Origin: a virus
Lineage: Duplodnaviria > Heunggongvirae > Uroviricota > Caudoviricetes
Reading direction: 5' to 3' (one strand)
Length of the DNA stretch: 4,302 nucleotides
Virus record (IMG/VR): IMGVR_UViG_2534681978_000024
In this document: positions 1,098 through 3,406 of the stretch, in pieces
Numbering within the stretch: the first letter of the stretch is position 1
Layout: each line of letters starts with the position of its first letter
The notes under the pieces: model-generated
Databases searched by the model: none
Told to the model about the DNA's origin: nothing
Seen by the model: only the letters and a program-made list of their open reading frames with translations
Translations under genes and position numbers: made by a program

Positions 1098-1113
1098 AGA
1101 CGCTCCGGAGAAA

Positions 1114-1139
1114 CGCCACCGCCTGTGGTGGTGTTTTTC
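1114..1139 (+). terminator. Weak candidate intrinsic terminator downstream of the phospholipase gene
   Basis: Short imperfect GC stem (gccacc ... ggtggt, about 5-6 bp) followed by a T5 run at 1135-1139, 17 nt after the stop codon at 1095-1097. The stem is short, so this is tentative. Confidence 0.35.
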
Positions 1140-1148
1140 TGGCTGGTG

Positions 1149-1160
1149 TTATTGAAAATA
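1149..1160. repeat. Left copy of an 11/12-identical direct repeat (ttattgaaaata) at the left edge of the AT-rich cassette
   Basis: ttattgaaaata at 1149-1160 versus ttactgaaaata at 3116-3127. Each copy sits immediately after a terminator T-run and at the point where base composition switches between GC-rich and AT-rich. Confidence 0.4.
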
Positions 1161-1225
1161 TTTTCAGATATATATTACCTGGACGATGGTTAAGATTAAT
1201 TTATTTAATTTTGGAGAGAAAACTC

Positions 1226-1684
1226 ATGAAACTGTTAAACATTCTTTTATCTGTTGTTTTAACTGTAAGTGCAACCGTCGCACAAGCAGAATCGGCATTG
1301 TGGAAGCGTAACAGTGTTGCCGGAACTGATATGTTCAGTATTGGTAATGTTTCTATTAACTGCACGACTAATCCAGAAGACAACAATTTGCTACCGCACT
1401 ATGTGTGGATTTACGGTCATACCCCCACCCCGCTAAATCAGTACGATTCTGATATCATTTTTATCATCAACGGTAAAGAGTATCCGGTCCCACCTGTCGA
1501 CGGAACACGAATGAATGAGAACAAATGGGTACACTTTATCGATGCTATCGGTGAAGCCACGAAGTTCGACGTTTTAGTAAACGGTAAGAAAGTCGACAGC
1601 TATACCACAAATATCAAAAATGTGAAAAAGACTTTGGGTAACAAATTCTACGGCAGTTGCTGGAGCACCTGGTTCCAGGAATAA
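1226..1684 (+). CDS. Hypothetical small secreted/periplasmic protein (about 152 aa precursor with N-terminal Sec-type signal peptide)
   Basis: ATG at 1226 preceded by Shine-Dalgarno GGAGAG (1213-1218, 7-nt spacer); the ORF track begins upstream at TTG 1211, but ATG 1226 with this RBS is the likelier start. N-terminus MKLLNILLSVVLTVSATVAQA-E has a positively charged n-region, hydrophobic core and AxA cleavage motif. Mature part about 131 aa with two Cys. AT-rich codon usage. No family recognised. Confidence 0.75.
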   Translation: MKLLNILLSVVLTVSATVAQAESALWKRNSVAGTDMFSIGNVSINCTTNPEDNNLLPHYVWIYGHTPTPLNQYDSDIIFIINGKEYPVPPVDGTRMNENKWVHFIDAIGEATKFDVLVNGKKVDSYTTNIKNVKKTLGNKFYGSCWSTWFQE

Positions 1685-1809
1685 TTGATAACGTGGTGTA
1701 AAACACCTCAGTTTAATTTAATACAGTGAGTGAAAATGAATATCATAAAAATATTTTCTGCTTCAGATGTCACATATTTTATTAACTGAATGATTAACAG
1801 GAGAATCAG

Positions 1810-2349
1810 ATGAACTGGCATTATGAAAAAAATGGTGTACGTTATGATAACGTAACAGAGGAAGATATTATTGAACGTATCCGCCGTGGTGAACTGAATG
1901 CATCAACACTGGTGTGGCAACAGGGCATGCTGGAATGGCAGCCAGTTTCAGCCACATCACTGGCGGAAATACTGAAACAAAGTGAAGTTCCTCCGGCCCT
2001 TCCGGGTCACCGCATTCCCGGAGGCGTTGTCTGGACGCTGGCATTTGCCCCTTTGATTGGATACATACTTGAGATGTGGACTGCCGGGCTGAACGGTATG
2101 TCATTTGAACGGGCTTATGATGCAGTCAGCGAAGGCCAGTACTGGTTTATCTCTCTGATTCTGAATATTGCTCTGGGATATCTGGATGAACGAAAACTCC
2201 GTAAATCTGGCGTGGATACCACAGCATTTGGCTGGCTGGCATGGTTGATCCCGGTTTATCTGTGGCGTCGGGCAAAAATCCTCGGGCAAAAACCTGCTTA
2301 TTTCTGGGTCTGGTTGGTTATGCTGATACTGGTGTTATTTACGGTCTGA
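1810..2349 (+). CDS. Membrane protein: N-terminal GYF-like (DUF4339-type) soluble domain fused to about four predicted transmembrane helices
   Basis: ATG at 1810 with Shine-Dalgarno AGGAG (1799-1803, 6-nt spacer). N-terminal roughly 50 aa (NWHYEKNGVRYDNVTEEDIIERIRRGELNASTLVWQQGMLEWQPVS) match my recollection of the bacterial GYF-like/DUF4339 consensus (W-x-Y ... NG ... TLVW-x-x-GM-x-x-W-x-P). C-terminal half has four hydrophobic stretches (VVWTLAFAPLIGYILEMW, YWFISLILNIALGYL, AFGWLAWLIPVYLW, AYFWVWLVMLILVLFTV) separated by charged loops. Confidence 0.8.
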   Translation: MNWHYEKNGVRYDNVTEEDIIERIRRGELNASTLVWQQGMLEWQPVSATSLAEILKQSEVPPALPGHRIPGGVVWTLAFAPLIGYILEMWTAGLNGMSFERAYDAVSEGQYWFISLILNIALGYLDERKLRKSGVDTTAFGWLAWLIPVYLWRRAKILGQKPAYFWVWLVMLILVLFTV

Positions 2350-2455
2350 TATTCTTTATCGCAGAGTTTACTAAATAATCAGGTTATTAGTGTTCTTAAC
2401 AGGTAAATGATGTTCATCATGGAACGGATATATTTTATTTGATTCAGGAGACAGT

Positions 2456-2604
2456 CAGAAACATAGTATAAATATATCGCCATGTTGAAGGTCATATCTT
2501 CAGGTATTTGTTTAATAAACAAGTCGGGGGTTAATCCTGACCTCTCGAGTGGATTATAAGTATTGCAGAAACAGTTTTTATACTTTTATTTAATATCAGA
2601 AACA
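2456..2604 (+). repeat. Three direct copies of the octamer CAGAAACA in the intergenic region upstream of the 2619 gene (candidate regulator-binding repeats)
   Basis: CAGAAACA at 2456-2463, 2566-2573 and 2597-2604, the last copy abutting the Shine-Dalgarno of the downstream gene. Seen directly in sequence; significance not computed. Confidence 0.3.
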
Positions 2605-2618
2605 ATGGAGTAATTATC

Positions 2619-3032
2619 ATGAAAAATATCATCACTATTTTAATGATTGCAGTTATCAGTTTCTTTACTGCTAATGTATCAGCAAACAATGCCGTTCCTT
2701 TACCAACCAACCTGACTGATGTTACTGACGGTACAGAATTCTGGTGTCAGGGTACTGATACTATCGACGGAGGTTGTGAATACCTGGGCACATCCAAAGA
2801 CATGCAATACGGTCTGGTACACGCCATGGGGGGTACAGCGTGCTGGGATGGTTTATACGGCGTAATTAATTTCTATACCGGTAAAGCCCAGACCATCAAA
2901 TACAACAACAATCAAAGTTGTGAAGGCAACATCACCGCCAGTTTCGTTACCCTGAAAAACGGTAAACCGGGCGTTAAACTTTACGACAATACGATTCATA
3001 AGGTTGTCGGGCTTGACGAAATCAAATTTTAA
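2619..3032 (+). CDS. Hypothetical small secreted protein with four cysteines (137 aa precursor, Sec-type signal peptide)
   Basis: ATG at 2619 with Shine-Dalgarno GGAG (2607-2610, 8-nt spacer). N-terminus MKNIITILMIAVISFFTANVSA-NN has a typical signal peptide with VSA cleavage motif. Mature part about 115 aa with four Cys (two possible disulfides). Followed by a strong intrinsic terminator. No family recognised. Confidence 0.8.
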   Translation: MKNIITILMIAVISFFTANVSANNAVPLPTNLTDVTDGTEFWCQGTDTIDGGCEYLGTSKDMQYGLVHAMGGTACWDGLYGVINFYTGKAQTIKYNNNQSCEGNITASFVTLKNGKPGVKLYDNTIHKVVGLDEIKF

Positions 3033-3082
3033 TGTATGAATTATAGTATCTTATCTGCGCGTTATTAATATCAAATGTAAAT

Positions 3083-3117
3083 AAAGCCCCGGCCATTATG
3101 GCAGGGGCTTTATTTTT
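3083..3117 (+). terminator. Rho-independent terminator for the 2619-3032 gene and the AT-rich cassette
   Basis: Hairpin aaagccccggcc / attat loop / ggcaggggcttt: an 11-bp stem with one G-A mismatch (3083-3094 pairing with 3100-3111), followed by a-ttttt (3112-3117), about 50 nt after the stop codon. Confidence 0.75.
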
Positions 3118-3127
3118 ACTGAAAATA
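3116..3127. repeat. Right copy of the 11/12-identical direct repeat (ttactgaaaata) at the right edge of the AT-rich cassette
   Basis: See left copy at 1149-1160. Located at the transition from AT-rich back to GC-richer sequence, overlapping the end of the terminator T-run. Confidence 0.4.
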
Positions 3128-3375
3128 CATGACGGGCTGTACATTACTTTTATTTTCCGAAGACCCTTTCTCACGCAAACAGACAGTTGCTGTCATAACA
3201 GCTTACCGCAATGTGTTTATCCAGGAATGCATTTCCGGCGGATTATCCGCAACGCGGAAGGTCAGCGACGCTGGCGCTGCCGGAATTCTGAACCCGATGT
3301 AGGCAAATAACTTAATGCGTGGCTCACCAGTGAAGGGCTTCCCGGACAATAAACCTCATTCATTTCACCCATCAG

Positions 3376-3406
3376 GCCGCGTCTTCTCCGGGAGACGCGG
3401 CTTTTT
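3376..3406 (+). terminator. Orphan strong terminator-like hairpin with no obvious upstream CDS (possible sRNA 3-prime end, or terminator of a decayed gene)
   Basis: Perfect 9-bp GC-rich stem gccgcgtct (3376-3384) pairing with agacgcggc (3393-3401), 8-nt loop, immediately followed by T5 (3402-3406). + strand orientation (T-run follows the stem; no A-run precedes it). Confidence 0.55.

Follow-up and report, generated by a model that had tools for sequence, protein, structure and literature searches.

The 4,302-nucleotide stretch of viral DNA analyzed here (the window; IMG/VR record IMGVR_UViG_2534681978_000024, Caudoviricetes) carries, at positions 1226-1684 of the plus strand, a gene for a small exported protein that we assign to the YfjT/YkfB family (PF27224) on the basis of RefSeq, Pfam, and BLASTP evidence. 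The reading frame is intact, running from an ATG at 1226 to a TAA at 1682-1684, which is included in these coordinates, and it specifies 152 amino acids. An identical coding sequence is present in RefSeq as WP_000771527.1, where it is listed as a “hypothetical protein” of Escherichia coli strain NCCP15648. Homologs of the protein exist, and the ratio of nonsynonymous to synonymous substitution rates (dN/dS) is 0.10 when the gene is compared with an intact ortholog of 74% amino acid identity, found on a metagenomic contig (L005; loci used for comparison are designated by L numbers). Together, these two observations indicate that 1226-1684 is a real, selected gene and not a chance open reading frame.

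The gene is preceded by a Shine-Dalgarno core, GGAG (1213-1216, plus strand), placed 9 nucleotides before the ATG. The duplex energy of this core with the anti-Shine-Dalgarno sequence is −6.4 kcal/mol, which is weaker than the 5th percentile across the window (−7.4). An initial annotation, made by a model from the sequence alone, had described the signal as strong; this overstates what is a four-nucleotide core of moderate strength. Its remark on codon usage rich in adenine and thymine (AT) is borne out: the guanine-cytosine (GC) content of the gene is 41% and its third-position value (GC3) is 0.47, below the 54-57% and 0.56-0.63 of the flanking patatin and DUF932 genes. A scan of the sequence before the gene revealed no consensus sigma-70 promoter.

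We find that the protein is a divergent member of the YfjT/YkfB family, as judged from several sequence comparisons. The exact protein has a precomputed match to PF27224:YfjT, recorded without a mark, which denotes E ≤1e-5. Homologs of 99%, 90%, and 74% identity likewise have a PF27224 match, in a word-indexed search that found near-identical proteins only. BLASTP comparisons with E. coli K-12 give 31% identity to YfjT over 142 amino acids (E 1e-21) and 31% identity to YkfB over 144 amino acids (E 2e-21), and K-12 ykfB was also picked up on F-prime plasmids by tblastn against plasmids. In three recently annotated genomes, the identical gene bears a newer name from the Prokaryotic Genome Annotation Pipeline (PGAP), “YfjT/YkfB family phage-associated protein.” The initial annotation had presented the protein as one of unrecognized family and as a candidate novel secreted factor, and neither description holds. 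Since the protein belongs to an already catalogued family, it is an ordinary uncharacterized protein and not a new secreted factor. The absence of any family in our Pfam and NCBIfam scans, which used releases that lack PF27224, is explained for Pfam by the family being newer than the copy scanned.

An exhaustive HMMER search of 1.84 billion representatives returned only 33 clusters at E <1e-3. Four large repetitive proteins among these representatives (P0016, P0017, P0028, and P0029) were discarded, since they seem to have been matched through repeats, such as MucBP repeats, or through composition. A profile search added 120 further relatives among the matches listed (130 found), all of them PF27224 proteins; their hosts are Klebsiella, Enterobacter, Citrobacter, Serratia, Yersinia, Erwinia, Edwardsiella, Cronobacter, and Salmonella. 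No match to a characterized housekeeping protein, which by the initial annotation's own account would have refuted it, was found. Other family assignments were considered and rejected. A match to Laminin_G_3 (PF13385), a concanavalin A-like lectin domain, had an E-value of only 0.014 and scored 16 bits where the cut-off is 27.6, and it appeared in 1 of 21 members. A jelly-roll lectin fold was also set aside, the Foldseek matches to GH16 and galectin folds having E >0.2 and TM-scores of ~0.17. No sequence or fold match was found to the periplasmic lysozyme inhibitors Ivy, MliC/PliC, or PliG.

The protein begins with a Sec-type signal peptide (residues 1-21, MKLLNILLSVVLTVSATVAQA; 1226-1288, plus strand), with predicted cleavage after AQA and without a lipobox. 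The n-region holds one Lys, the 11-residue hydropathy maximum is 2.5, and A-Q-A occupies positions −3 to −1, directly before the mature residues ES. The assignment rests on hydropathy, on the −3/−1 rule, and on conservation across the family: a signal-like N-terminus is present in 122 of 126 full-length members, and none of the 126 has a lipobox. The small protein is therefore, by prediction, one exported to the periplasm, and the signal peptide with an AxA cleavage motif that the initial annotation had read from the sequence is upheld. Its estimate of a mature chain of about 14 kDa is close to the computed value of 14.9 kDa for 131 amino acids (isoelectric point 5.9).

Cysteine occurs at only two residues, 46 (in CTTNPED) and 145 (in GSCWSTW), far apart in the mature chain, as had been noted earlier; we find in addition that this pair is conserved family-wide. 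Their codons lie at 1361-1363 (Cys46, the first of the conserved pair) and 1658-1660 (Cys145, the second, with a putative disulfide to Cys46), both on the plus strand. Exactly two mature cysteines are present in 121 of the 126 members, at a median separation of 99 residues. In an alignment of 21 sequences, Trp101 is invariant, while Ala21, Trp26, Gly33, Ile39, Cys46, Pro89, Phe114, and Cys145 are at least 90% conserved. Trp26 is encoded by TGG at 1301-1303 (plus strand). The family consensus reads as showing a conserved basic C-terminal stretch (KK...KN..K), and a loose form of the N-terminal motif (I/A)-P-N-x-W is found in 120 of the 126 members.

AlphaFold2, run on the 21-sequence alignment, gives a confident model, with a mean predicted local distance difference test score (pLDDT) of 89.2 and a predicted template modeling score (pTM) of 0.80. 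The mature chain (1289-1681, plus strand) is modeled as a single alpha/beta domain of 131 amino acids and 14.9 kDa, with strands at residues 27-31, 34-39, 42-47, 59-62, 77-81, 84-87, 113-118, and 121-127 and helices at 95-108, 130-137, and 139-145. Among predicted viral structures (BFVD), Foldseek matches it to a “putative adhesin” of Serratia phage vB_SmaM_Yaphecito (E 6e-6, TM-score 0.62) and also to proteins of uncultured myoviruses. All 21 aligned members match PHROG 3429, a group of unknown function (best E 2e-18; 9e-5 for the 1226-1684 protein). No function has been demonstrated for the phage proteins of PHROG 3429 and BFVD, and the name “adhesin” comes from an annotation that is itself unverified. 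There is also a resemblance to the periplasmic IalB proteins (invasion-associated locus B), for which both scores are below significance; sequence similarity to IalB is absent, and none of the 21 members has an IalB Pfam match. A sequence-profile search of PDB sequences returned nothing meaningful.

The nearest named relatives are the K-12 proteins YfjT, from cryptic prophage CP4-57, and YkfB, from CP4-6. These are 155 amino acids long, against 152 here, and all three share a Sec signal peptide, the two conserved cysteines, the invariant Trp101, and the motifs FDV-NxKK and KN-xK. Identity to YfjT and YkfB is nevertheless only 31%, and the mature N-terminus is ESALW in the window protein, whereas the K-12 proteins have IPG(F/L)W. 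The genes occupy the same CP4-type cargo slot, upstream of DUF905, DUF932, antirestriction, RadC, and CbeA/CbtA genes, although the contents of the slot differ. In K-12, the order is YfjR, YpjK, a YfjS or YafY lipoprotein, then YfjT or YkfB, then DUF905. The window gene has no preceding YpjK and YfjS/YafY genes; instead, a patatin operon lies before it, and genes for a GYF_2 protein and a four-cysteine protein lie after it. In Klebsiella plasmids, a family member fills the equivalent slot in a further arrangement: a WYL regulator, at least one small protein, the YfjT-like gene, then (in one plasmid of two) a DUF4234 gene, and a DUF932 gene. A 150-amino acid exported protein encoded beside the Klebsiella plasmid YfjT gene gives a weak alignment to the product of the window gene at 2619-3032.

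The window is E. coli DNA: its positions 1100-3100 are 100% identical to many complete E. coli chromosomes, and the gene is carried by 77 of 5,426 complete E. coli genomes. Among these 77 carriers, identity of the allele to the window is ≥99% in 36 and ~93% in 40; carriers of the ~93% allele include O157:H7, O145, O111, and porcine enterotoxigenic E. coli (ETEC). In both ~93%-allele loci examined (L019 9001-9458; L020 9001-9459), codon 26 has changed from TGG to TAG, an amber stop at the nearly invariant Trp26. The O157 strain 644-PT8, which carries the ~93% allele, also has a 1-nucleotide deletion, and PGAP calls only a 57-amino acid C-terminal fragment in the pseudogene. In comparisons of the window with the amber allele, dN/dS is 0.63 for this gene; its neighbors stay constrained, with 0.05 for the GYF_2 gene, 0.27 for the 137-amino acid gene, and 0.11 for the patatin gene.

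The gene lies in a recurrent block whose order holds for every E. coli copy. The upstream part comprises a GTPase gene, sometimes an Ag43/Cah autotransporter gene, a dynamin-family gene, a YjcZ/RdcB-family gene, a patatin-like phospholipase gene, and the 1226-1684 gene. It is followed by genes for the GYF_2 (DUF4339) membrane protein and the 137-amino acid exported four-cysteine protein, by a DUF905 pseudogene, and by a downstream part of DUF932, antirestriction, RadC, DUF987, CbeA/CbtA, DUF5983, DUF957, and DUF4942 genes. The block, from GTPase to DUF4942, recurs between chromosomal flanks of at least five kinds: ghrA-csg, infA-aat, mug-rpoD, sugE-blc-ampC, and ulaEF (L010-L015, L019, and L020). 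Its upstream side is joined to type I restriction-modification genes or to ter genes. In strain NCCP15648, the region lies within a tRNA-Ser (serine transfer RNA) island that also bears ter tellurite-resistance genes, and a tRNA-Ser gene is annotated at the downstream island edge in both RefSeq-annotated loci (L001 and L019). The flanks of the block vary, and it is therefore a mobile module with variable upstream cargo. The 1226-1684 gene itself is accessory cargo of mobile elements and here fills the variable slot of such an island, a tRNA-Ser island of the CP4 type.

Two terminator-like structures bound the AT-rich part of the window. An intrinsic-terminator-like hairpin with a T-run (1114-1140, plus strand; stems 1114-1130 and 1117-1133, then TTTTT) ends the dynamin/YjcZ/patatin operon, and GC content falls there from ~54% to 38%. 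A GC-rich hairpin (AAAGCCCCGGCC...GGCAGGGGCTTT) followed by ATTTTT, read from the sequence at 3083-3117 (plus strand), is a probable terminator of the three-gene AT-rich block. It was not reported by a simple hairpin scan, and it underlies a sub-threshold match to the Rfam family Thr_leader; the Rfam scan of the window yielded only two sub-threshold chance matches. Farther on, another strong GC-rich hairpin, of 13 pairs and followed by a T-run, is present at 3374-3403, just upstream of the DUF932 gene. At 3098-3310 lies a remnant of a DUF905 (YkfF-like) gene, which RefSeq annotates as a frameshifted pseudogene (L001 22030-22211) and with which the conserved DUF905/DUF932/antirestriction/RadC/CbeA-CbtA island module begins.

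The patatin gene occupies 18-1097. Together with the GTPase gene, the 798-amino acid dynamin-family gene, and the YjcZ/RdcB-family gene found upstream in L001 (14543-19998), it forms an island-borne four-gene unit, inside which the window begins and which looks like a mobile paralog of the K-12 pair rdcA-rdcB (yjdA-yjcZ) to which a lipase has been added. The only PADLOC matches for this unit, to LeoBC/LeoA and “phospholipase effector,” are weak; it could be a membrane-remodeling or defense module.

Downstream of the YfjT-like gene, 1810-2349 (plus strand) encodes a 179-amino acid protein with an N-terminal GYF_2 (DUF4339) domain (Pfam, E 5e-12) and, by hydropathy, hydrophobic segments in its C-terminal half. 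Purifying selection on this gene is strong (dN/dS 0.05), also in copies of the block in which the YfjT-like gene has been inactivated. The next gene, 2619-3032 (plus strand), encodes a 137-amino acid exported protein with four cysteines and a hydrophobic signal-like N-terminus (…FFTANVSANNA…), identified by hydropathy; no Pfam, NCBIfam, or PADLOC family was found for it. The genes at 1226, 1810, and 2619 are almost completely linked in E. coli, occurring in 77, 78, and 78 genomes, respectively. This linkage is not evidence of shared function, because it reflects one recently spread block.

The 2619 gene also has relatives in a second, unrelated lineage of elements. Its representatives are a “plasmid” of Enterobacter ludwigii (222 kb), one metagenomic contig, and three viral contigs from IMG/VR (107-225 kb); a fourth IMG/VR viral contig ends before the relevant position. 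Here, a protein encoded two genes downstream of the YfjT-family gene is 32-36% identical to the 2619 product (tblastn E 1e-17 to 5e-19; BLASTP E 2e-21 for L016). These 2619-type homologs lie at 7395-7805 and 7816-8205 in L016, at 14834-15244 in L021, and at ~7394-7798 in L023, L024, and L026. In this lineage, the YfjT gene is the first of five small genes in succession, each with a product whose N-terminus is hydrophobic and signal-like. A variant of the same five-gene array contains the gene for the intact protein most closely related to that of the window (L005, 74%). No homolog of gene 1810 was seen beside YfjT genes outside the E. coli block. Thus, of the two co-occurrences that the initial annotation had proposed examining, that with 2619 recurs in the second lineage and that with 1810 does not. 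Comparisons with hhalign revealed no homology between the YfjT family and YfjS/YafY, the 2619 product, or the 150-amino acid Klebsiella neighbor. The 2619 family was not significantly related to YfjS/YafY, and the 1810 product showed no similarity to the DUF4234 neighbor of the Klebsiella YfjT gene.

Nearly all genes of the E. ludwigii element (L021; NZ_CP134650.1, 222 kb) are hypothetical. The YfjT-family protein that it encodes shares 90-99% identity with proteins of IMG/VR viral contigs of the same size (L023 and L026, ~225 kb), and the local gene order matches. Judging from gene content and order, the element is probably a jumbo phage or phage-plasmid and not an ordinary plasmid. A tblastn search with the window protein and two other members against 50,697 deposited phage genomes found nothing, and a scan of IMG/VR with the window protein itself found no relatives. 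One further family member gave marginal matches only, to Klebsiella jumbo phages. Outside the island of the window, family members are carried by the K-12 cryptic prophages, by plasmids of Klebsiella, Enterobacter, and Citrobacter, and by viral-type genomes of ~225 kb.

How might such a protein act? It would be exported through the Sec pathway and cleaved by signal peptidase I after AQA21, a step suggested by the sequence and by its conservation across the family. The product would then stay soluble in the periplasm, since it has neither a lipobox nor a transmembrane segment. A disulfide between Cys46 and Cys145, suggested because the pair is near-invariant, would be formed by DsbA and would tie the third strand of the sheet to the C-terminal helix. 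There, the protein may serve the element that carries it as a non-enzymatic binding protein in the cell envelope, its most plausible task being to exclude, or protect against, incoming phage, DNA, or other envelope-directed attack. This last step is purely an inference, drawn from three features: the invariant or near-invariant residues are structural ones (Trp, Gly, Pro, Phe, Ile, and Cys), the family consensus reads as having a conserved basic C-terminal stretch, and the family is found almost only on islands, plasmids, and phage-like genomes. Taken as a whole, we consider it likely that the 1226-1684 gene encodes a ~15-kDa periplasmic disulfide protein of the YfjT/YkfB family, carried as mobile-element cargo and having an exclusion or protective binding role at the envelope. 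The binding or immunity role that the initial annotation had put forward may hold.

Several observations weigh against this interpretation. PADLOC, a search for defense systems, found no match for the protein or for its two downstream neighbors. The fold search that the initial annotation had suggested, run on the confident single-domain model, returned no significant relative from PDB (best E 0.26, TM-score ~0.2) and no ligand hint. In place of the usual IPNMW, the window protein and its close relatives have ESALW, which keeps the Trp and loses the Pro-Asn; this is a peculiarity of the subgroup and not a failure of a family-defining feature. The neighboring genes are intact in both amber-allele loci examined. 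Because 40 of the 77 carriers have the ~93% allele, with the amber codon in both loci examined and the neighbors intact, the gene is dispensable and not required by its neighbors, and the window carries the intact form of this accessory gene. One distant member, P0034, stands alone among housekeeping genes; the tie between the family and mobile elements is thus not a strict one. Finally, literature searches found no functional study of any YfjT/YkfB family member, with the sole exception of an antimicrobial-peptide susceptibility screen that included K-12 ykfB. In that screen, the minimum inhibitory concentration of the membrane-active peptide Smp43 was higher, by a factor of 2 or more, for the Keio strain lacking ykfB, and ykfB was among the genes with altered expression under Smp43 and polymyxin B (PMC8125054). 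These results form a weak link between the family and the envelope and count in favor of the interpretation.

The protein might alternatively be an orphan periplasmic immunity protein, kept in a mobile immunity-like array and acting against an envelope toxin delivered by competitors through a type VI secretion system (T6SS), contact-dependent inhibition (CDI), or a bacteriocin. We regard this as unlikely, since no effector, Rhs, CdiA, T6SS, or bacteriocin gene adjoins any examined member, no known immunity family matches by sequence or fold, and the K-12 paralogs have no known cognate toxin. It is very unlikely that the gene is a functionless, decaying remnant of horizontally acquired DNA whose frame merely happens to be open in this strain. 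Decay has overtaken the ~93%-allele loci examined, which have the amber codon with or without a frameshift in an allele present in 40 of the 77 carriers, and the gene is AT-rich and has a DUF905 pseudogene among its island neighbors. Yet a dN/dS of 0.10 against the intact 74% ortholog, the conservation of the signal peptide, the cysteine pair, and the core Trp across Enterobacterales, and the confidence of the structure model all speak for a maintained protein.

We give even less credence to a secreted virulence factor or small B-type toxin subunit, the bolder reading of the initial annotation. The protein is indeed exported and of ~15 kDa, the island that carries it is found in pathogenic lineages (O157:H7, O145, O111, and ETEC), and a similar Serratia phage structure is labeled “putative adhesin” (Foldseek E 6e-6, TM-score 0.62). 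Neither a B-subunit-type fold nor an adjacent A-subunit gene was found when the features of AB-type toxins were sought. Least probable of all is that the protein is a periplasmic inhibitor or immunity partner of the upstream patatin-like phospholipase, an idea suggested by its position directly downstream, 129 nucleotides past the patatin stop, in every E. coli copy of the block. Against it, a terminator and an abrupt fall in GC content lie between the two genes, the patatin protein has no evident N-terminal signal peptide, and the YfjT, YkfB, plasmid, and viral copies have no patatin neighbor. Moreover, in the amber allele the patatin gene remains constrained (dN/dS 0.11) while the 1226-1684 gene decays (0.63).

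The envelope-binding interpretation can be extended to the family as a whole. Both the YfjT and the 2619-type families co-occur at ~35% identity in two independent element lineages. In this extended form, YfjT/YkfB proteins would be new-fold periplasmic exclusion or immunity factors of Enterobacterales islands, plasmids, and jumbo-phage-like elements, acting together with the unrelated four-cysteine family; we offer this as a speculative and rather doubtful proposal.

The protein described here is already known as an object, since Pfam and PGAP place its exact sequence in the named, uncharacterized YfjT/YkfB family. The initial annotation correctly spotted an exported protein to which current annotation pipelines already give a family name. 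Our analysis adds three points to the database entries: a fold without significant relatives in PDB, a recurrent pairing with a 2619-type exported protein in jumbo-phage-like genomes, and an amber-stop pseudogene form in both genomes with the ~93% allele that were examined, including an O157 strain. A published list of K-12 genes that are still uncharacterized (the y-ome) contains YfjT and YkfB (PMC11551758), and the window provides a divergent, intact representative of this family, which has no solved structure. If the family does prove to be an exclusion or immunity factor acting at the level of the envelope, the repeated presence of this cargo gene on CP4-type islands, large plasmids, and jumbo-phage-like genomes would be accounted for.
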